Shown piece after piece: positions 1,948 through 15,646 of a stretch of DNA of 64,000 bases. Source of the stretch: an uncultured Candidatus Saccharibacteria bacterium (GTDB lineage: Bacteria; Patescibacteriota; Minisyncoccia; Phycocordibacterales; UBA9973). Both the position numbers and the translations under genes were made by a program. Numbering within the stretch: position 1 is the stretch's first letter; every line of letters begins with the position of its first letter. The notes under the pieces are model-generated. The model saw only the letters and a program-made list of their open reading frames with translations, was not told where the DNA came from and searched no databases. The stretch covers positions 99,467 to 163,466 of the forward strand of contig CAZYIA010000002.1 in assembly GCA_964646765.1 (NCBI GenBank). The letters run 5' to 3'.

Positions 1948-3405
1948 GTGTCATCACGCGATAAACTTCTCTATATCGTCCTTCTCGGTTTTACCATTGG
2001 TGTTTTTCTTCGAGCAAAGACACCCGATGTATATGTGCCGGCGGCTTTAGTTTCACTCAGTACTGGAAGTTTATTTTTATATCTTAAGGAAAAGAAAAGA
2101 CGGGTTATTTTTCTTACGAGTATTTTTGCAGTTGCGCTTTCCCTTGGAGTCATTCGGTTTGTTGTGAGTGTCCCTCCACCCTCGCTTTTATTAGGTGGCG
2201 TTGGAGAAACTATTTCTCTCACCGGGGTTATTTCTAGTGATCCTGATATTCGTGAATTTACCACGAAGTTAAGTATAGAAACTGATGAAGGCACAGTGCT
2301 AGTGACAGCGCCGATTGGCGCATATGCCTATGGTGACGAAATAATGGCAACTGGAACTCTAACGCAACCCGAAAACTTTGAAACTACTACTGGCCGCACC
2401 TTTAACTACGAAGCTTATCTTGGCAAAGATGGCATTTACTTTGAAATCAAAAAAGCAAAAGTTGTAGTTCTTTCACACAACCATGGAAACAGTATTTTAT
2501 CGTTACTCTTCACATTGAAACATGCAATTCTTAATGTTTTTTCGAAAACGATTCCTGATCCAGAACGAACTCTTTTAGGCGGCATTCTATTAGGTATTAA
2601 ACAATCGCTCGGCACTGATGTGCGCGATGCGCTTGTTGCCACGGGTACTATTCATATTGTGGCACTCTCTGGTTATAACGTTTCAGTTGTTGCTGGTTCC
2701 ATTATGAGAGCACTTTCTCTGATTACTTCAAGAACTGTTGCAACAATGGCAGGAGGCATCGGTATTGTTCTTTTTGTGCTTATGACTGGCGCGTCTTCAA
2801 CAGCAATTCGAGCAGGGCTTATGGCTCTGTTAGCGTTGATCGCTAAAATCTGGGGCAGGCCCTATGATGCACTACGCATTTTGTTTATCGCCGGAGTAGC
2901 AATGCTGATCTATAACCCACATTACCTAACCGACGATATTTCGTTTCAGCTTTCTTTTTTGGCCACCCTTGGGATTATTGTAATTGAACCAATTCTTCGA
3001 TCGAAACTTTCTTTTTTACAATCGCGATTTATTATCGAACTTTTCTCAGTTACCCTCGCCGCTCAAATTGCGGTGCTGCCATTTTTAGTTTGGGCGATGG
3101 GAACCCTTTCTTTGGTATCGTTACCTATAAATATTTTTGTTGGCATTTTGATTCCGTATTCAATGTTCGGTGGGGCATTGGTAGCTTTTCTCGGCCTTCT
3201 TTCTATGCCTTGTGCTACTCCAGTTGCCTATCTCGAGTATTGGCTGCTTCATATACTCCTCTGGCTTATTACCAAAGGAGCTAGTGTACCGTATGCTTCA
3301 ATAATTATTCCACCTTTCTCAGGGCTTTTCATTCTATTAATCTATGGGCTGATTTTGTGGTGGGTCTATACAGAAAGTAGAATTCGTGTTATAAAAAAAA
3401 TCTAA
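1948..3405 (+). CDS. comEC: ComEC/Rec2-family competence channel protein (polytopic membrane domain only); GTG start
   Basis: Multiple hydrophobic helices are present. The central region (GTIHIVALSGYNVSVVAG...TGASSTAIRAG) is typical of the ComEC competence domain. It has no metallo-beta-lactamase domain of its own. Confidence 0.65.
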   Translation: MSSRDKLLYIVLLGFTIGVFLRAKTPDVYVPAALVSLSTGSLFLYLKEKKRRVIFLTSIFAVALSLGVIRFVVSVPPPSLLLGGVGETISLTGVISSDPDIREFTTKLSIETDEGTVLVTAPIGAYAYGDEIMATGTLTQPENFETTTGRTFNYEAYLGKDGIYFEIKKAKVVVLSHNHGNSILSLLFTLKHAILNVFSKTIPDPERTLLGGILLGIKQSLGTDVRDALVATGTIHIVALSGYNVSVVAGSIMRALSLITSRTVATMAGGIGIVLFVLMTGASSTAIRAGLMALLALIAKIWGRPYDALRILFIAGVAMLIYNPHYLTDDISFQLSFLATLGIIVIEPILRSKLSFLQSRFIIELFSVTLAAQIAVLPFLVWAMGTLSLVSLPINIFVGILIPYSMFGGALVAFLGLLSMPCATPVAYLEYWLLHILLWLITKGASVPYASIIIPPFSGLFILLIYGLILWWVYTESRIRVIKKI

Positions 3406-4012: not shown

Positions 4013-4052
4013 AATAGCCGCAGGTTAACGCCAGCGGCTGTTTTTTATTTTG
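4013..4052 (+). terminator. Rho-independent terminator (hairpin agccgc…gcggct followed by a T-run)
   Basis: An inverted repeat followed by TTTTTTATTTT lies immediately downstream of the 3432..3962 CDS. It overlaps the 3' end of the convergent SOD gene. Confidence 0.5.
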
Positions 4053-4641
4053 TCGCTTCTACGAAATTTTTTTCGATTACTTCCCAGTTGAGGTTTGCGA
4101 AGAAATCTTCAACGTACTGTTTCTTCCCAGAAGGAGCGTAGTCCATGACATAGGAGTGTTCCCACATGTCGAGCATGAGAATTGGTTGTAATCCATTTAG
4201 TTGGCCAAGATGCTGTTCGTCTACCCATGCCGGGGTAAATTGTCCCGCCTGTTTATCCCAGTATAAAATTGCCCAGCCGATGCCACGGGTCATTGCGAGC
4301 GTTTTAAATCCCATTAAGAATCCATCAAACGAACCAGCTTCGCTTTCGATTGCTGCTTTAAATTTTGAATTTTCTGGTAATGGTTTTGTGCCGTCCTCGA
4401 GCGATTTAAAGTAGTATTCATGGTTACGCATGCCATCAAATTCAAAAGCAATGCGACGATGGAGTTCCCCGATAATGTAAGCATTCTTTTCTGGATCACT
4501 CATGAGCTCGCCTAATTTTTCAAAAAGGCCGTTTAAGTTTTTTACGTATCCTTGGTAGAGCTTTAAATGTTCCTCAATTGTTTTTTTTGAAATTCCTTTA
4601 AGCTCCGGAATGTTAAATGTTTGTGCTAAGTGTTGTTTCAT
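4045..4641 (-). CDS. Fe/Mn-family superoxide dismutase
   Basis: The N-terminal LPELKG...IEEHLKLYQGYVKNLN matches the HHxKHH/YV region. The C-terminal DMWEHSYVMDY matches the classic D-x-W-E-H-A-Y-Y metal-ligand motif. Confidence 0.85.
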   Translation of the reverse strand: MKQHLAQTFNIPELKGISKKTIEEHLKLYQGYVKNLNGLFEKLGELMSDPEKNAYIIGELHRRIAFEFDGMRNHEYYFKSLEDGTKPLPENSKFKAAIESEAGSFDGFLMGFKTLAMTRGIGWAILYWDKQAGQFTPAWVDEQHLGQLNGLQPILMLDMWEHSYVMDYAPSGKKQYVEDFFANLNWEVIEKNFVEATK

Positions 4642-6950: not shown

Positions 6951-7805
6951 ATGCGTCGGTATCTTTTTATTGTTCTTCTCATAGGATTCTGTGTCTTTGG
7001 CGTTCTGTGGTATGCGTTTCCAAAACACACAGTTGGTAACGATTTAAAAGTATATCTTTTAGATATTGGCCAAGGAGATGCAATGTATGTGTTGGCTCCC
7101 GACGGCAGCGATATGATTGTCGATGGTGGCCCGAAAGGGTCACTATTAACGCCGCTTCAAAAAGTGCTGCCGTTTGGTGATAGGGAAATAAATGTCATTG
7201 TGGTGACTAACCCTGACACTGATCACTACGCTGGTTTTCTTGAGCTGTTAAAAGAGTATCAGGTTGATACCGTTATTTTACCAGCGACACATTCTAAAAC
7301 GAAAACCTGGGCAGATTTTGAGTCTCTAGTTGCTGAAAAGAAAATTCCTACGGTGATTGCGTCGCGTGGCATGCGTGTACTGCTCGATAGAGATCATGGG
7401 GTCGAATACGATGTACTTTTTCCTGATCGCGATGTCTCCTCATGGACAAGTAATGATGGTTCGACGGTTGGGAAGTTGGTATATGGCGCGCGAAGTTTTA
7501 TGTTAACTGGTGACGCAACTGCGTATACTGAATCACTGCTTCTTTCAGGAAAAGATACTGCGATTTTAAAAAGTGATGTACTGAAAGTTGGTCATCACGG
7601 TTCACGAACTTCAACAAGTGAAGCGTTCTTAAAAGCTGTCCTCCCAACGTACGCCATTATTTCCGCAGGAGTACATAACAAGTATGGCCATCCACATCAA
7701 GAAGTGATTTCACGGCTGCAAGCATTTGGTGCCCAAATACTTGGAACCTATGAGCGTGGCAGCATTCTGTGTACCACTAATGGCGCTTCTCTTAATTGCC
7801 ACTAA
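6951..7805 (+). CDS. Membrane-anchored metallo-beta-lactamase-fold protein, ComEC C-terminal-domain-like
   Basis: An N-terminal transmembrane helix is followed by YLLDIGQGDAMYV, the VVTNPDTDHYAGF (HxHxDH-type) motif, and LKVGHHGS, which is typical of the ComEC/Rec2 MBL domain. It is encoded separately from the channel domain at 1948..3405. Confidence 0.65.
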   Translation: MRRYLFIVLLIGFCVFGVLWYAFPKHTVGNDLKVYLLDIGQGDAMYVLAPDGSDMIVDGGPKGSLLTPLQKVLPFGDREINVIVVTNPDTDHYAGFLELLKEYQVDTVILPATHSKTKTWADFESLVAEKKIPTVIASRGMRVLLDRDHGVEYDVLFPDRDVSSWTSNDGSTVGKLVYGARSFMLTGDATAYTESLLLSGKDTAILKSDVLKVGHHGSRTSTSEAFLKAVLPTYAIISAGVHNKYGHPHQEVISRLQAFGAQILGTYERGSILCTTNGASLNCH

Positions 7806-7902: not shown

Positions 7903-9690
7903 TTAGTAGCACTCATGATGCCAAATTGGCACCTGGTGGGCTACGGGCGTCCTGTCGCCTGGTGGTGGAGTTCGTTCAAGCATGAAGATGATATCAAATG
8001 AGAGTAGTTCCTCGTTTGTGTTTCGGTGATCTGCATTCCATGTTCGGCAAATATATCTGCCATACCCTTGGCGAAAATCAGCAAGATCAGATGACCACAA
8101 GTTCATCATATATTTTTGCCAGCGTTGGTCTTTGTATGTGTAGGCAATCCACTGTGGTTTCTCGTAGGAAACAGGCGAGTGTCCACTAAAAACATCAATG
8201 GTGCCACCGTTTCTCAATTTACCTGGCATAACATACCACCCATCTTCAATAAGCGGAGTTGGGGCGAACATATTAAATTGCTGATCCAATCTGGTGATTG
8301 GGGCAATTGGCCGGAGTCTGTCTGGAATAATGTGATACCCAAGTGTTTCAAGATTTAAGCACACTATATAAATAGTAAAGAAAAGTAATACACCAGCGCG
8401 AAGCTGTTCTTTCCAAAGCTCTTGTTTTTCTGTTGGTTCTGGTGCACATACCAACTTGCGGTGATGAGCAACTGAACGGTATATCTCTTCACCAAGAGCT
8501 CGAAGTGGCGGGATGCGCAATAGTGGAGCAATAATTTTGGCATACGGTGAATATGTACATACGGTAATAAAGCCATAGAAACTTGTTGCTATTTTGCCAT
8601 CGGCATCAATAATGACCCAAGAATTCTCTTTCTCCATGATGCGCGCCCCTTCTTCATGTTCGGTTGAGGGGATAATGCGTGTCGATGGGTGAAGGAATAA
8701 AAGTCGGGCAAGTACAAAAGTTGCCTTGTGGCAGAATGAGCAATCGAAGTCATAAATAATAGTGAGATTAGGCTTACCCCAGGATTTTACTTTCGACACG
8801 ATTGGAGCAACACAATAATCCCAAAATTCGGAAGGGAAAAGACCAAAGAGTGTGGTAATCGTAATCATTCCAAAGAGGCCGAGACGCATACTCATATTAA
8901 AACCAGTTTGAAGTGCGATGAAACCAAAAATACCGATTGTGCGGAAAATCCATTGTTTCCAAGGGATAAAGAAAAGAATAACGCCGTAGACTTCGTAGTA
9001 GAGAACTGCGTGAGTAAGTAGAGGAAGAACAGCTGGAATGTTTCGCAACCATACGCCAAATGGTGTAACGAGCTGGTCAACGTTTAGAGCGTAATATACT
9101 GCGCTTCCTTCGCTGTGCCATGCCGGACCAGTTTTTAGGATGCCTGTAAAAATATACAGAACGCACGCTTGAGCTATGTACCCGAGGGTGCCGAAGTCCG
9201 CGATTGTTTTACTGCTTGGTCGAGGGACGCGATTAAAAAGTCGATCAAGCGACCACACACGTTCAAGTGGCAAAAACATCATGAAGAAAACAGTTGTGCG
9301 AAAAACAATATCACCACCCTGGAGCACCAACGGATTTCGATTTTGAAGTGAAATGAGGAGAAACCAACAAACAACAATGGCAAATCGAGTTCGGTAGCCA
9401 AAGAGTAGCATCAGCGCAAAAATCCCAGCAACAGCAAAGAGAAAAATTTGAAACCAAAGTTCTCCTGAAGCAAGATGGAGCGATACCGTCCAGTGCATAT
9501 TCCAATGAGCGAATAAGTCACTTCGCGGCAGGACTCCTCCATCGGTGTAGTGAGCAAAAAGATTTCGTGATCGCTGTAAAAGATCACAAAGAATGGTAAG
9601 TGCGATACCCACACGCAAAAGAGCTAGTGACCGATAATCAAGCGCGAACCACGTGCGAATAGTATCTTTCGCAAGTTCTAGAGATTTCAT
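7903..9690 (-). CDS. Polytopic membrane protein fusing an HTTM (vitamin-K-dependent gamma-carboxylase-like) domain to a DCC-family thiol-disulfide oxidoreductase (DUF393) domain, plus a C-terminal extension
   Basis: The HTTM signature is DYRSLALLRVGIALTILCDLLQR...FAHYTDGGVLP with multiple transmembrane helices. The DCC motif is IIYDFDCSFCHKATFVLARLL. The listed ORF runs to 9945, but the likely start is the ATG at 9688-9690 (MKSLELAKD), which gives a divergent arrangement with the next gene. Confidence 0.6.
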   Translation of the reverse strand: MKSLELAKDTIRTWFALDYRSLALLRVGIALTILCDLLQRSRNLFAHYTDGGVLPRSDLFAHWNMHWTVSLHLASGELWFQIFLFAVAGIFALMLLFGYRTRFAIVVCWFLLISLQNRNPLVLQGGDIVFRTTVFFMMFLPLERVWSLDRLFNRVPRPSSKTIADFGTLGYIAQACVLYIFTGILKTGPAWHSEGSAVYYALNVDQLVTPFGVWLRNIPAVLPLLTHAVLYYEVYGVILFFIPWKQWIFRTIGIFGFIALQTGFNMSMRLGLFGMITITTLFGLFPSEFWDYCVAPIVSKVKSWGKPNLTIIYDFDCSFCHKATFVLARLLFLHPSTRIIPSTEHEEGARIMEKENSWVIIDADGKIATSFYGFITVCTYSPYAKIIAPLLRIPPLRALGEEIYRSVAHHRKLVCAPEPTEKQELWKEQLRAGVLLFFTIYIVCLNLETLGYHIIPDRLRPIAPITRLDQQFNMFAPTPLIEDGWYVMPGKLRNGGTIDVFSGHSPVSYEKPQWIAYTYKDQRWQKYMMNLWSSDLADFRQGYGRYICRTWNADHRNTNEELLSFDIIFMLERTPPPGDRTPVAHQVPIWHHECY

Positions 9691-9748
9691 ATAAAAATAG
9701 TATACACCGCTATTGCACAGCAAGGATGGGTATAGTTTAATAACCCAT

Positions 9749-10666
9749 ATGAAACGCCTCGCAGGTATATTGTTGCTCATCGCCTCTTTTCTTGTCGTCT
9801 CTCCTGCACGCGCGGCAACAATTCCGGAACTTGAAAAAATAATTTCAGATCTCAAAGCCCAAATCGTTGAACTGCAAAGCAGATTGCAGGCCTCTGCTGT
9901 ACAAAAAGATGCAGGTGCTATTGGTGTCCAAAAAATCACGCGCACCCCAGCGCCACTTCCAGCGTTTGAAGACTTGAAACCGGCACGATACGGAGAATAT
10001 AGCGGAAGTGTTCGGACGCTTCAAAGCGAACTTACTGCGAGAGGATATTATGATGGTCCGATCACCGGCCGGTATGCTCAGGCAACTCGCGAAGCAGTAA
10101 AGAAGTTTCAGAAAGATAATGCTCTTCCTGGTGATGGGAGAGTGGTAAATGCGCAAATGATTTCCCGTATCAGCGAGTCGCTCTGTACGCTCTCTGTTTC
10201 TGTTTCTTCCGATATTGCTTCCCAAACAATTACCGCAGGGACCGAACACGTTCCGCTTGCGAAGCTTATGCTTACTGCACCCAAGAATTGCGGGGTTACC
10301 ATCTCAAAAATTTCAGTTGCTCTTGAGACAGACGGCACCGCGGTTAAAAACGTTGTCGAAGATATCAGGGTGTTTGCGGGAGAAAAGGAAATTGGTTTCT
10401 TTGCCTCGCCATCATGGGTAAATACCTTGCGCGATATTAATTTAGTTCTCGCTCCGAGTGAATCAGCATCTCTTATGATCGAAGCTTCCGTTGTAGGAGT
10501 TGGTAACGGAGTGGTGCAAGCTGGACTCTCTTATATCGAGGCAGTAAAAACAGGAACAACAACAAACGTGGGCAACAAACGAAGTTATCTTGGCGAAAAG
10601 ATGAAGCTAGTTGCTCCTCCGGAAGAAGAAAATTCTATAGATGGGGAAAGCCAGGAAACCATATAA
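9749..10666 (+). CDS. Secreted protein with signal peptide, coiled-coil, peptidoglycan-binding domain (PG_binding_1-like) and C-terminal domain
   Basis: The signal peptide MKRLAGILLLIASFLVVSPARA and the heptad-like IPELEKIISDLKAQIVELQSRLQ are followed by the PG-binding motif GSVRTLQSELTARGYYDGPITGRYAQATREAVKKFQKDNALPGDGRV. The start was moved from 9713 to the Met of the signal peptide. Confidence 0.6.
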   Translation: MKRLAGILLLIASFLVVSPARAATIPELEKIISDLKAQIVELQSRLQASAVQKDAGAIGVQKITRTPAPLPAFEDLKPARYGEYSGSVRTLQSELTARGYYDGPITGRYAQATREAVKKFQKDNALPGDGRVVNAQMISRISESLCTLSVSVSSDIASQTITAGTEHVPLAKLMLTAPKNCGVTISKISVALETDGTAVKNVVEDIRVFAGEKEIGFFASPSWVNTLRDINLVLAPSESASLMIEASVVGVGNGVVQAGLSYIEAVKTGTTTNVGNKRSYLGEKMKLVAPPEEENSIDGESQETI

Positions 10667-10705: not shown

Positions 10706-12715
10706 ATGAAAAAAATCATTGCTGGCCTCGTGCTTGCAGGGGCACTTTTAGGAGCGGTACCGTTTGCTCGGGCTTCAACGCTTGATGACCTTGCGCTGCT
10801 TGTCCAACAGTTACGAGAAGAGGTTGTTCAACTCAAAAACCAGCTTCAGGCAGCAAGTATTCGCGCGACAACAACTGAGACGGTAAGCAGGATCCCTGAC
10901 CCTCAAGCAATTTCTGTTCTCGAAACAAAAGTTATTACTCCAGCAAAGCTGGGCGACTCTAGTGAAGCGGTAAAAGTTATACAAACTGAGCTTAAGACTA
11001 AAGGATATTATCCTGGTCCTATTACCGGAGTCTATGGGAAAGAAACTGCGAAAGCCGTCGCTAGTCTTCAAAAGACAGCAGGGATTAGCGGAGACGGTAG
11101 TAGGGTAGGATCACAAACAATTGCGGCGATTACTGGAGGAGTAAGTCCGGCACAAATTCCAAACGGAGGGCAACAGCCGGCACAAGGACCAAATGGAACC
11201 CAAAGCTCTATCTTTGGGAAAGTTCTTGTTTTAGCGGGAGGATATTGGGGGGCAACACCAACACCACAATCCTTTAATGATGTCTGGGCATCCTCAGGAA
11301 CACTTACCACATGGACTGAAGTTTTGGGAGATACCCCAACACCTGGAGTAAGTCAATTTAGCCAACAGACAGATACATATGCAGTTTTTCATAATGGGAA
11401 GATATATCTTCTCGGTGGTCTAGGAGGAACAGGACAATCTTTCTATGGTGACGTGTGGTCATCTTCGAATAATGGGCAGACTTGGACACGGCTTACAACA
11501 AATGCGCCGTGGAGCTCCCCGTATCCGTGTTGTGGTAGACGATATGGTCCCGGCTTCGTTTCCTTTAACGGAAAACTTTGGATTATTGGTGGTGATCAAA
11601 ACCCTGGACCAAATCCCACTACTACTGATATTTGGTCTTCCCCAGATGGCATAAATTGGACGCAAGAAACTTCTTCCGTTCCATGGGGCCGTCGGCATGA
11701 ACACACGACTTTGGTTTTTAATAACAAGCTCTGGGTTATTGGCGGTGTACAATTACAACCATACGCAACAAAAAATGACGTCTGGTCTTCATCTGATGGT
11801 GTTACTTGGACACAAGTAACAGCGAATGCCCCATGGTCAACAAGAAACGGGCATATGTCAGTGGTCTTCAATAACAAAATGTGGGTTATTGGCGGCGGTG
11901 GGTTTAACTCTGACGTTTGGTCTTCATCTGATGGTGTTACTTGGACACAAGTTACAGGCTCTGCTCCCTGGGGTGCAAGTTTCGGAAAAACCTGGGGGCA
12001 AGCGATTGTCTATAATAATAAAATCTGGATTCTTGGTGGTGGTGGAAATTCTCAGACGCAAGCTTCAGAGAGCGAAATTTGGTCTTCACCTGATGGAGCA
12101 ACATGGACACTAGTTACTAATATCCCGGGCTGGGCTGGCCGATCATGGCACGCAGCTGTTGTTATTCCGCCTTCCGTTAGTTCAATCCCAGTTACTAATT
12201 TGCCTACTCCAGTGAATAGCGCATGCAGTGCAAATCCAGTTATTACTGTTACACCGATACCACCTGCTGCGCAAATAGCCGCCCCAGGTCAGTATGGTGT
12301 GCAAATCGCGGATGTAACTATTAAAAATTATTCTTCATGTACGTATAAGATACGGTCAGTCTTTCCCACTTATGGTGTAGATGCGGGTAGTGGGAATTCA
12401 TCTTTACTCCAACAATTTACCAGTCAGTTCACTCTTCCTACAGTATTGACCTATTCAGTCAACAATGTAGCCGTTGGGCAGGGAAGTATTTCTGCTGGCG
12501 GTACAACAGCAGGCATCCCGCTTTCTCTCGGCATTACGCCAAACTCAACAAAGACGATCAAGGTTACAGCTACTTTTCCCGCAGTTACTGGCTATTCAGG
12601 GTTTAAACTACAACCAAAAGTGGTGAAGTGGATGAATGTTGATCTTTCTGGACAGATCTTTCAGGTAACTCCGCAGACTAATTACACGAATGCGACTTGG
12701 TTTACTGTTCAATAA
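10706..12715 (+). CDS. Secreted protein: signal peptide, coiled-coil, PG-binding domain, six to seven Kelch-like beta-propeller repeats, C-terminal beta-rich domain
   Basis: The N-terminal architecture matches the upstream gene (LDDLALLVQQLREEVVQLKNQLQ; GDSSEAVKVIQTELKTKGYYPGPITGVYGKETAKAVASLQKTAGISGDGS). Repeats of the form DVWSSSDGVTWTQVT..APW..R.GH..VVFNNKMWVIGG occur about seven times. Confidence 0.65.
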   Translation: MKKIIAGLVLAGALLGAVPFARASTLDDLALLVQQLREEVVQLKNQLQAASIRATTTETVSRIPDPQAISVLETKVITPAKLGDSSEAVKVIQTELKTKGYYPGPITGVYGKETAKAVASLQKTAGISGDGSRVGSQTIAAITGGVSPAQIPNGGQQPAQGPNGTQSSIFGKVLVLAGGYWGATPTPQSFNDVWASSGTLTTWTEVLGDTPTPGVSQFSQQTDTYAVFHNGKIYLLGGLGGTGQSFYGDVWSSSNNGQTWTRLTTNAPWSSPYPCCGRRYGPGFVSFNGKLWIIGGDQNPGPNPTTTDIWSSPDGINWTQETSSVPWGRRHEHTTLVFNNKLWVIGGVQLQPYATKNDVWSSSDGVTWTQVTANAPWSTRNGHMSVVFNNKMWVIGGGGFNSDVWSSSDGVTWTQVTGSAPWGASFGKTWGQAIVYNNKIWILGGGGNSQTQASESEIWSSPDGATWTLVTNIPGWAGRSWHAAVVIPPSVSSIPVTNLPTPVNSACSANPVITVTPIPPAAQIAAPGQYGVQIADVTIKNYSSCTYKIRSVFPTYGVDAGSGNSSLLQQFTSQFTLPTVLTYSVNNVAVGQGSISAGGTTAGIPLSLGITPNSTKTIKVTATFPAVTGYSGFKLQPKVVKWMNVDLSGQIFQVTPQTNYTNATWFTVQ

Positions 12716-13720: not shown

Positions 13721-15646
13721 ATGCGATTGGAACGTCTTTTAGTCCCTCTTGTTTCTGCTGTTCTTATTTTTTCGACAGCGAGTTTTGCGCTTGCATCTTC
13801 AACTATAGGAACCATTGATCCAACTAACTCAGGTGCCAAATATGCATCCGTTGATGATGGTAGTCGATTAAACATTGGTAGTTTCACAACTCAATCTGCA
13901 TATAATGCGACAGTAACAAGTACCCAAATTCGCGGCTACGGTTGGGGTGATGATATGGGTTGGGTGGTTTGGAACTGTGCTGATACTACGAGTGGTTGTT
14001 CAAACACAAATGGTAATTTTAAGGTTTCAGTTAATGGAACTACCGGTGTTCTTTCAGGCTATGGTTGGGGAGAAATTGCTGGCTGGATTAATTTCGGTCC
14101 ATTTTCTAACGCGGCTATTTCGCGAGTAAAGATTGATCCGACCACCGGAGAATTTGGTGGAACCTTAGGCAATGCAGGTTACGCTTGGAGTGAAAATTTT
14201 GGCTTCATAAAATTTGATTGCAGTAATTCACCAACATGCGTCAAAACTGATTGGCGTGGAGCAAGTAGCACTACAGGTACTTCTGGTTCAGGCTCAGGTG
14301 CTGTTGGTTTGATTGGTCCTACTGGCCCAACATCAACAGTTGGTACAACGACTGGAACTACTACGGGCACAACTACAGGAACTGCTGGTACTACAACCAC
14401 TACAACTACTGGAACAACGACGGGAGGTAATGGTACTCAAACTTCTACAACTACAACAACGACAGGAACCACAACTGGTAGTGGTGATACGACAACCAGT
14501 ACAACCGGTGGCGATACTACAACCGGAACAACTGGAAGTGATGCCGGTACATCAACTGGATCAACAACTGGCACAGGAACTGGTTCTGGAACTGGTAGTG
14601 GTGGAAGTGGTACAGGATTCAGCCCAAATCCTCCAGGAGGTATCGTAGATGTTATTAAGAATCTTTTCGATACCATTAATGGTCTACAGGAGATTCCAAT
14701 TGCTAAGGAACTTGGTAAAGCTGCCGTGATTGTTGGTGCTGCCGCTGGTGTTGCCGCTACGACGGTTGCTGCACTCTTCGCTAATCCATTTGCAGTATCT
14801 GACCTCTTCTCTATCCCACTTCGTCTCTGGTCGCTACTCCTTTCTGCGTTTGGAGTTCGTCGTAAGCCATGGGGTGTTGTGTATGACTCTGTAACAAAAC
14901 AACCGCTTGATCCAGTATATGTAGTACTCAAAGACACGGCTGGTAACGATGTTGCAACCTCAATTAGTGATATCAGTGGACGTTGGGGCTTCTTAGCAAA
15001 ACCAGGTGTATATACCATTGCTGCTGGAAAAACAAATTATGTGTTCCCATCTCAAAATTTGAGTGGCCGCCTTGCGGACGAACTCTACCAAGATCTCTAC
15101 TTTGGTGAACCGATCACCATTTCACAAGAAGGTGAAGTAATTGCAAAAAATATTCCAATGGACCCAGTTGGCTTTGACTGGAATGAATTTGCCAAGAAGC
15201 AGCAGAAATTGATGAGCTTCTACACTGAACGAACAAAATGGTTTGCACGAATTACCGCAGTTGTATTCTATGCTGGTCTCCTCATTTCTCTCGCAGCATT
15301 TATTGGTACTCCAAAACCGTTGAATGGTATTATTCTTGCCCTCTATGGTTTAATTTTCCTTCTTCGCCGATTAGGTGTAAAACCAAAATCGTGGGGTGGT
15401 ATCGCCAATTCGCAAGGTTACCCAGTTCCGTTTGCCATCGTTCGAGTGTTCTCTGTTGCAACTAAGACTGAAATTACTCATAAAGTTGCTGATGCTACCG
15501 GCCGCTACTACTGTTTGATCCAGAATGGTAACTACTACGTCACTATTGATCGTAAGAATCCAGATGGTACCTATACCAGGGTTCTTGAAACTCCTCCATT
15601 TGCAGTCACAAAAGGGTTCTTGAACAAAAGCTTCACTATCCAGTAA
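13721..15646 (+). CDS. Large surface or membrane protein: signal peptide, N-terminal beta-rich domain, about 110-aa Thr/Gly-rich mucin-like linker, two transmembrane segments each followed by a carboxypeptidase-regulatory-like (prealbumin-fold) domain
   Basis: The signal peptide is MRLERLLVPLVSAVLIFSTASFALA. A low-complexity TTGTTTGTTTGTAGTTTTTTTG...GSGTGSGGSGTG region follows. Repeated modules read PWGVVYDSVTKQPLDPVYVVLKDTAGN...GRWGF and SWGGIANSQGYPVPFAIVRVF...TGRYY. Confidence 0.55.
   Translation: MRLERLLVPLVSAVLIFSTASFALASSTIGTIDPTNSGAKYASVDDGSRLNIGSFTTQSAYNATVTSTQIRGYGWGDDMGWVVWNCADTTSGCSNTNGNFKVSVNGTTGVLSGYGWGEIAGWINFGPFSNAAISRVKIDPTTGEFGGTLGNAGYAWSENFGFIKFDCSNSPTCVKTDWRGASSTTGTSGSGSGAVGLIGPTGPTSTVGTTTGTTTGTTTGTAGTTTTTTTGTTTGGNGTQTSTTTTTTGTTTGSGDTTTSTTGGDTTTGTTGSDAGTSTGSTTGTGTGSGTGSGGSGTGFSPNPPGGIVDVIKNLFDTINGLQEIPIAKELGKAAVIVGAAAGVAATTVAALFANPFAVSDLFSIPLRLWSLLLSAFGVRRKPWGVVYDSVTKQPLDPVYVVLKDTAGNDVATSISDISGRWGFLAKPGVYTIAAGKTNYVFPSQNLSGRLADELYQDLYFGEPITISQEGEVIAKNIPMDPVGFDWNEFAKKQQKLMSFYTERTKWFARITAVVFYAGLLISLAAFIGTPKPLNGIILALYGLIFLLRRLGVKPKSWGGIANSQGYPVPFAIVRVFSVATKTEITHKVADATGRYYCLIQNGNYYVTIDRKNPDGTYTRVLETPPFAVTKGFLNKSFTIQ
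14270..14625 (+). repeat. Imperfect tandem codon repeats (ACN GGN units) encoding the Thr/Gly-rich linker
   Basis: Repeated units act gga act/aca act gga are visible in the nucleotide sequence. This is a likely slippage- or recombination-prone tract. Confidence 0.5.

Follow-up and report, generated by a model that had tools for sequence, protein, structure and literature searches.

A single-chain protein with a GGCX-like membrane core, an inserted DCC domain and a conserved C-terminal module in an uncultured Saccharibacteria bacterium

In the human gamma-glutamyl carboxylase, GGCX, the roles of the catalytic and pocket residues, including that of Lys218 (K218) as catalytic base, have been described (PMC12589487, PMC13486548); the D263E variant retains partial activity, and giant-virus homologues carry Glu at this position (PMC13486548). 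A bacterial counterpart has been modelled from Melghirimyces, in which a pair of proteins, HTTM-DCC1 and DUF5819, is predicted to form a complex resembling the whole of GGCX, the DUF5819 helix lying on a GGCX transmembrane (TM) helix and its domain in the position of the clamp, with menaquinol placed beside conserved Lys, Trp and Phe residues (bioRxiv 10.64898/2026.08.19.745780). The function of the bacterial relatives of vitamin-K-dependent carboxylases is a long-standing question; MloH has an assigned reaction. Here, a gene at positions 7903 to 9690 of a 64,000-nucleotide stretch of DNA from an uncultured Candidatus Saccharibacteria bacterium (contig CAZYIA010000002.1; the whole stretch is hereafter termed the window) is compared with these systems. 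Its product joins an HTTM/GGCX-like membrane core, a DCC domain and a C-terminal module in one chain. The reading favoured here, by a modest degree, is that it is a bacterial integral membrane enzyme of the GGCX type within the HTTM superfamily, a single chain dependent on quinol and O2 with an outward-facing active site. A first-pass annotation of the same DNA had already described one polypeptide with an HTTM/GGCX-like membrane domain and a DCC domain, which holds, and the fusion is kept across phyla.

The gene and its GGCX-like membrane core

The gene lies within a single maximal open reading frame (ORF) on the minus strand (7903..9945 in the ORF list), in which the ATG at 9690 was chosen as the start in agreement with homologues, giving a product of 595 aa. 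Gene calling on an independent public contig gave the same 595-aa product, and the identical protein (P0001) was found in NCBI and Logan. Searching 5.8 billion proteins returned 351 relatives, many of them about 600 aa long; the spanning of 96-100% of the query by homologues at 36-71% identity excludes the two genes joined by a frameshift against which the first-pass annotation had cautioned. The residues it quoted are present in the translated protein, and the further TM segment it placed after the DCC domain corresponds to a helix at residues 425-448. Two of its distances need correction: the DCC motif lies at about residue 311 and not after some 390 aa, a figure that fits only the maximal 680-aa ORF, and the C-terminal domain that follows the extra helix comprises about 147 aa instead of about 200. 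All counts out of 73 given below are based on an alignment of 73 full-length homologues (A1). The features of the gene are:

7903..9690, minus strand: whole gene, 595 codons plus stop (TAA/TAG at 7903-7905), ATG at 9690; coordinates verified by translation
8782..9648, minus strand: HTTM/GGCX-like polytopic membrane core, residues 15-303, about eight helices, two of them probably re-entrant
9133..9135, minus strand: Lys186 codon, aligned to the GGCX catalytic base Lys218 by HMMER and hhalign
8992..8994, minus strand: Glu233 codon, aligned to GGCX Asp263, the partner of Lys218, by HMMER and hhalign
8443..8775, minus strand: DCC1-like domain with a putative thioredoxin fold, residues 306-416, inserted after the TM8-like helix and before the TM9-like one, predicted to be cytoplasmic
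8731..8742, minus strand: CSFC, the CxxC of the DxxCxxC motif (D314, C317, C320); translation checked
8347..8418, minus strand: additional TM helix, residues 425-448, equivalent in position to GGCX TM9 and to the DUF5819 N-terminal helix
7906..8346, minus strand: C-terminal domain, residues 449-595, about 147 aa, predicted to be extracytoplasmic; no Pfam family
8254-8283, minus strand: Q-x-[WF]-x-M-F-A-P-x-P motif, residues 470-479, QQFNMFAPTP in the window protein

The core is homologous to GGCX, as detected both by hhalign (probability 96.4%, E 1.2e-9, 254 columns) and by HMMER (E 1.6e-3). The predicted structure of the window protein has a pLDDT of 95.7 and a pTM of 0.92, and when this model was searched with Foldseek the top 16 PDB matches were all GGCX, with about 600 aligned columns. 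The residues characterised in GGCX are also conserved: K186, equivalent to K218, is Lys in 73/73 homologues, while E233, equivalent to D263, is Glu in 70 and Gln in the other three. F273 (GGCX F299) is kept in all 73, G271 (GGCX G297) in 72 and W191 (GGCX W223) in 62. The HTTM model PF05090 is matched by 29 of the 73 homologues, the best at 2.1e-14. An NCBIfam scan of the window protein returned no match, the SdpB model TIGR04033 included, and nor did the protein match the lipase maturation factor model PF06762, to which three of the 73 homologues do (best E 1.3e-4).

An Asp residue, D127, is likewise invariant (73/73). It is found in a QGGD turn (residues 124-127, nt 9310-9321) at or beside the position of the substrate-pocket His160 of GGCX, and could be a catalytic or substrate-binding residue specific to this family.

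The C-terminal module and the DCC domain

A hydropathy peak at residues 429-452 marks the additional helix, which occupies residues 425-448 in the predicted model. The domain behind it is strongly conserved, with the signatures QxWxMFAPxP, DGWYV and QRWQKY and a pair of Cys residues (C548/C594). A profile of this C-terminal module (A2) identified 4540 clusters at E <= 1e-3 among 1.84 billion representatives, and its alignment by hhalign to a profile of 21 DUF5819 proteins (A3) reached a probability of 88.5% and an E value of 2.7e-6 over 54 columns only, which run from the helix end through the QxWxxFAPxP motif to the hairpin after it. Beyond these first 54 or so columns the domain is not detectably similar to DUF5819: the PF19136 (DUF5819) model gave no match to three C-terminal domains at E <= 10, and a stand-alone relative (P0172) matched it marginally (E 0.061). 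On plasmids of Bacillales (Virgibacillus and Bacillus thuringiensis; L090, L091), a DUF5819 gene is located directly upstream of a gene for an HTTM-DCC protein of 446-456 aa. The C-terminal module corresponds, in fused form, to this separately encoded partner and completes a GGCX-like architecture, a point that the earlier description of the gene missed. On the grounds of these alignments we read the window protein as a putative single-chain form of the split HTTM-DCC/DUF5819 system, although the homology of the rest of the outer domain is unproven.

Small hypothetical ORFs (two encoding 101 aa and one 111 aa) lie ahead of the split operons of Bacillales (L090:949-1807, L091:163-1966). The B. 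thuringiensis locus also contains an S8 peptidase gene, with a TasA-family gene downstream. Such loci may be toxin or peptide maturation loci like sdpABC.

The two Cys residues of the DCC motif, C317 and C320, are invariant in the 73 homologues and D314 is present in 72. The family model PF04134 is matched by 71 of the 73 at E <= 0.01 (best 8.3e-14), and across the wider set the CxxC is retained in 149 of 158 DCC-bearing relatives. The domain itself is less constant. A census of 262 sequences found 148 with the core, DCC and C-terminal domains and 73 with the core and C-terminal domains but no DCC, the rest being C-terminal domains only or fragments. One protein without it (P0045, 502 aa) ranks within the ten relatives closest to the window protein, and a search for stand-alone DCC genes beside such DCC-less relatives found none. 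As close relatives have no DCC domain at all, it is an accessory module, and not the obligatory redox partner that the fusion had originally been taken to indicate.

The orientation of the three parts in the membrane was considered with reference to GGCX, in which TM8 and TM9 are joined by a cytoplasmic loop and the C-terminal domain is lumenal. In the window protein, the DCC domain replaces this loop. The short loops predicted to lie inside are rich in Lys and Arg, and the conserved Cys pair of the C-terminal domain is typical of an outer location. Hence the DCC domain is most probably cytoplasmic, and both K186 and the C-terminal domain would face outwards.

The family is widespread. With one genome scanned per species, a relative is carried by at least 253 species genomes, the best 80 of which include members of the candidate phyla radiation (CPR)/Patescibacteria, Woesearchaeota, Nanoarchaeota, Omnitrophota, Acidobacteria, Nevskiaceae, Bdellovibrionales and Chloroflexota, as well as many cyanobacteria (Anabaena, Nostoc, Crocosphaera watsonii WH 8501, Leptolyngbya PCC 6406 and others). 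Plasmids of Thermus and of haloarchaea also carry versions. A complete GGCX-like architecture with an inserted redox domain is thus common, and reaches organisms of minimal metabolism.

Proposed function and gene neighbourhoods

If the protein is a quinol-dependent enzyme, its three parts may be assigned as follows. The polytopic core would correspond to the vitamin-K-binding membrane domain of human GGCX, with K186, E233 and a quinone pocket containing W191, G271 and F273; the ninth helix and the DUF5819-related outer domain would cap the active site from outside the cell; and the DCC domain, with a putative thioredoxin fold and an invariant CxxC, would be inserted in the cytoplasmic loop before the ninth helix. 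K186 would deprotonate a membrane naphthoquinol (menaquinol or phylloquinol), which would react with O2 to give a strong base or an epoxide, as in GGCX, and the energy of this species would drive the modification of a substrate at the outer face of the membrane. The DCC domain, with a cytoplasmic thiol reductant, may help to recycle the oxidised cofactor at the inner leaflet in a manner resembling VKOR; alternatively, it may gate activity according to redox state. Of this scheme, the order of domains, the relationship to GGCX, the residue conservation and the gene linkage are observations, and the membrane orientation, the quinol cofactor, the part played by DCC and the kind of substrate are inferences.

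Support for a quinol-using reaction that is independent of the protein itself comes from cyanobacteria. In 22 cyanobacterial loci from several orders a Pyr_redox_2 gene is found on the same strand as the HTTM/DCC gene, the products sharing 42-82% mutual identity, and in most of these its end lies 23-234 nt upstream of the HTTM/DCC gene. The closest solved relatives of these proteins are NDH-2 NADH:quinone reductases (4nwz, E 3e-36; S. aureus NDH-2; B. subtilis YjlD), followed by sulfide:quinone reductase and FSP1. NDH-2 would supply quinol where present. The culturable members among these organisms (Anabaena, Nostoc, Crocosphaera), with the quinone reductase gene adjacent, make the quinol hypothesis directly testable.

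Several observations weigh against this reading. The window protein taken alone falls below the Pfam cut-off for the DCC domain (26.9 bits against PF04134, cut-off 27.8) and has no match to the HTTM model PF05090 at E <= 0.1, so that a Pfam scan, proposed earlier as a check on both domains, supports them at the level of the family and not of the single protein. His160 of GGCX has no counterpart, falling on G126 in the HMMER alignment and on P120 in that of hhalign. The surrounding Asn158-Asn159-His160 region aligns to QGG(D127) in the former and to R118-N119-P120 in the latter, with a single Asn kept only in the hhalign register (N119 = Asn159), such that the alignment of Asn158/159 is ambiguous. 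As His160 is not conserved, the window protein is not an orthologue of gamma-glutamyl carboxylase, and this absence in both alignments, with the ambiguity of the neighbouring Asn residues, suggests that the substrate would not be a Gla-type glutamate. A rough neighbour-joining tree with parsimony implies at least about 31 gains or losses of the DCC domain, a figure inflated by tree error although the pattern is clear. The NDH-2 linkage is limited to cyanobacteria, and no NDH-2 homologue or quinone-related gene was found in the 64-kb window. The nearest relatives of the window protein are from CPR bacteria and DPANN archaea, which to our knowledge usually lack quinone biosynthesis and respiratory chains. 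Nor has dependence on quinones been demonstrated for other HTTM proteins, such as SdpB and those of linaridin clusters.

The predicted topology presents a further difficulty. Because the membrane would separate the DCC domain from the Lys site, electrons are unlikely to pass directly to the active site; the CxxC and K186 would be on opposite faces, and any part played by DCC in cofactor recycling would have to be indirect. The quinone- or thiol-dependent reaction suggested in the first-pass annotation is therefore retained in its quinone component, by virtue of the cyanobacterial NDH-2 gene, and loses its direct electron transfer from DCC. A bolder version of the proposal is a self-contained vitamin K cycle in one chain, in which an outward-facing quinol epoxidase or base generator would be combined with an inward-facing, thiol-driven DCC domain that re-reduces the quinone, in episymbionts auxotrophic for quinones. 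This is judged quite unlikely. If true, CPR bacteria and DPANN archaea could run GGCX-type chemistry on their envelopes with quinones from the host membrane, and a new class of substrate for vitamin-K-dependent modification would exist outside animals and natural-product pathways. Confirmation of the quinol-dependent enzyme itself would extend the strong-base chemistry of vitamin K to the prokaryotic envelope and provide a first function for the DCC family; otherwise, the Lys-acid pair of HTTM proteins would serve a different chemistry.

A possible, if doubtful, alternative is that the protein is a maturation factor independent of quinones, the HTTM core and outer domain serving as a membrane scaffold for secreted peptides or proteins or taking part in their processing, with the conserved Lys engaged in other chemistry and the DCC domain acting as a cytoplasmic redox sensor. 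Against the SdpB model TIGR04033, relatives reach 31-78 bits with their HTTM parts, under its cut-off of 178; the HTTM-DCC protein of Virgibacillus (1e-21) and the cyanobacterial P0117 (2e-7) are examples. HTTM proteins also occur in linaridin clusters, SdpAB has been proposed to act in maturation of the SDP toxin, and the Bacillales split loci, with their small ORFs, S8 peptidase and TasA-family gene, are arranged as at toxin or peptide loci. The probable lack of quinones of their own in CPR hosts would also fit. Conservation of the Lys-acid pair and of the aromatic residues that bind naphthoquinol in GGCX argues instead for the quinol-dependent enzyme, as does the linked quinone reductase of NDH-2 type in cyanobacteria, and no precursor-peptide gene is conserved beside the fused family.

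The cyanobacterial loci raise a second alternative. The HTTM/DCC gene there is part of a cluster on the same strand, in the order acyl-CoA dehydrogenase-like, acyl carrier protein (ACP), MBOAT, 314-aa unknown, Pyr_redox_2, HTTM/DCC, second MBOAT and DUF1574-like genes, which recurs in several orders with single components in 14-26 loci. It looks like a Dlt-like system acylating an envelope component. On this reading the enzyme would act in envelope acylation or lipid remodelling, its target being not a protein but a lipid or glycan-linked acyl group that an MBOAT/ACP system supplies. A parallel would be the proposed modules of giant viruses, in which GGCX-like epoxidases are paired with desaturases and VKOR (PMC13486548). 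Such a role is unlikely: the cluster is found only in cyanobacteria and is absent from the window and from all other phyla sampled, and adjacency, which is indirect evidence for acyl substrates of the HTTM enzyme, could reflect a lineage-specific operon.

The cluster was seen at L033:1-9000 and in about 25 further loci (e.g. L029, L042, L046, L050, L072 and L081). The 314-aa protein belongs to no family, the DUF1574-like genes number one or two, and an Anabaena locus (L006) has a gene for an AMP-binding enzyme upstream.

In the window, the HTTM-DCC gene is divergent from two genes for secreted peptidoglycan-binding proteins, as had been noted, and both are real, matching PG_binding_1 at E 8.5e-14 and 2.2e-12:

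9749-10666, plus strand: PG_binding_1 gene 1, 58-nt spacer between the HTTM-DCC start and its called start
10706-12715, plus strand: PG_binding_1 gene 2, with Kelch repeats

The first-pass annotation proposed these proteins as substrates for a gamma-glutamyl or Cys-directed modification, to which the divergent arrangement, the short spacer and the same adjacency in two related CPR genomes lend some colour. It is very improbable nonetheless. The adjacency is confined to closely syntenic CPR genomes, as part of a larger block with L28, an M50 peptidase, a metallo-beta-lactamase, GMP synthase and superoxide dismutase, and is missing from another CPR locus (P0006), from cyanobacterial, acidobacterial and proteobacterial loci and from all other lineages; neither protein is rich in Glu (7.2% and 1.8%), their Cys residues number only 2 and 4, and the His160 of GGCX is not conserved in the putative enzyme. 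More generally, clustering of ORFs around 82 loci identified no neighbour or substrate gene conserved across phyla. An artefactual origin, as a chance ORF or a gene pair joined by a sequencing or assembly frameshift, has a negligible probability and is already refuted: nothing was found in its favour apart from the weak Pfam scores of the window protein itself, whereas the identical protein is present in independent data, 148 relatives share the three-part architecture and a single confident fold is predicted.

Both peptidoglycan-binding proteins are secreted and paralog-like, sharing a signal peptide, a coiled-coil and a PG_binding_1 domain, to which the second adds a Kelch beta-propeller and a Ser/Thr-rich C-terminal region; a version of 1000 aa is encoded in a related CPR genome (L005:2613-5615). 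The block also retains, in related CPR genomes, a Fe/Mn superoxide dismutase gene (4045-4641, minus strand), three genes from the HTTM gene, which implies exposure to the O2 that GGCX-type chemistry would need. ComEC is apparently split into a DUF4131/Competence gene (1948-3405, plus strand) and a metallo-beta-lactamase gene (6951-7805, plus strand), separated by about 3.5 kb that holds unrelated genes, and is arranged alike in related CPR contigs (L001, L002 and L005). At 13721-15646 (plus strand) a 641-aa protein is encoded with a signal-like N-terminus, a low-complexity region rich in Thr, Gly and Ser at about residues 180-330 and then hydrophobic segments; its homologue in L002 has no Pfam family. 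Scans for promoters and terminators around the HTTM-DCC gene performed no better than on shuffled sequence.

Elsewhere, two single cases of neighbours suggestive of quinone metabolism were observed: an ABC1/UbiB-type kinase gene directly downstream of the homologue in a metagenome-assembled genome (MAG) of Bdellovibrionales (L026:7805-9475), and a gene of the mandelate-racemase/MenC-type enolase superfamily upstream of that in a deltaproteobacterial MAG (L089:2780-3841). An arrangement of TPR, HTTM-DCC and small-ORF genes common to a 1-Mb MAG contig and a Thermus aquaticus plasmid was rejected as coincidental, the flanking proteins being unrelated.

Comparison with known systems

Members of the family are already known through automated annotation as "HTTM domain-containing" or "DCC1-like", and the split form has been described computationally (bioRxiv 10.64898/2026.08.19.745780); this 2026 preprint was the one report on HTTM with DCC found in the literature searched, which held no experimental work on the family. 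The single-chain three-part architecture, the C-terminal domain outside Pfam, the repeated loss or gain of DCC and the cyanobacterial NDH-2 linkage were not found described elsewhere.

In comparison with GGCX, the window protein has the same order of parts (core, cytoplasmic loop, last TM helix and outer or lumenal domain) and the same five key positions (K218/K186, D263/E233, F299/F273, G297/G271 and W223/W191), at a sequence identity of about 13-14%. The 110-aa DCC domain takes the place of the short cytoplasmic TM8-TM9 loop, and a domain of about 147 aa that of the lumenal propeptide clamp of about 350 aa. The C99-C450 disulfide of GGCX is not conserved, the window protein having the C548/C594 pair instead, and a common register of [YQ]xW[DN]M[MF] and RW[KQ] after TM9 is not significant (hhalign E 0.17). 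MloH, the vitamin-K-dependent aspartyl carboxylase of malonomycin biosynthesis in Streptomyces, differs, by description only, in having no DCC domain and in belonging to a natural-product cluster.

SdpB, which acts in SDP toxin maturation in Bacillus subtilis, is a partial parallel, being a membrane protein of the HTTM family with a small partner, SdpA. It has neither a DCC domain nor a fused outer domain, however, and the window protein neither matches TIGR04033 nor has a toxin precursor gene nearby. The GGCX-like epoxidases of giant viruses keep K218 and, like the window protein, have Glu at the D263 position, and their modules are genomically coupled to a quinone-recycling enzyme (PMC13486548). 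Their cores are truncated, without the TM9 and outer domain that the window protein possesses, and their partners are VKOR and a desaturase, not DCC or NDH-2 (PMC13486548). The DCC family (PF04134; YuxK and plant DCC1) shares with the window protein the DxxCxxC motif and, putatively, the thioredoxin-like fold, but its known members are stand-alone soluble proteins, whereas the window protein has the domain inserted into a putative membrane enzyme.

The Bacillales split pair offers the same succession of an HTTM core and a DCC1-like domain, and its DUF5819 partner is, similarly to the C-terminal module, a TM helix with an outer domain opening with QNWxLFAPxP. The window protein and the Bacillales HTTM-DCC proteins are about 24% identical and their genomic contexts differ. 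What is encoded by two genes in Bacillales is, in the window protein, a single chain of three parts with the partner fused at the C-terminus.

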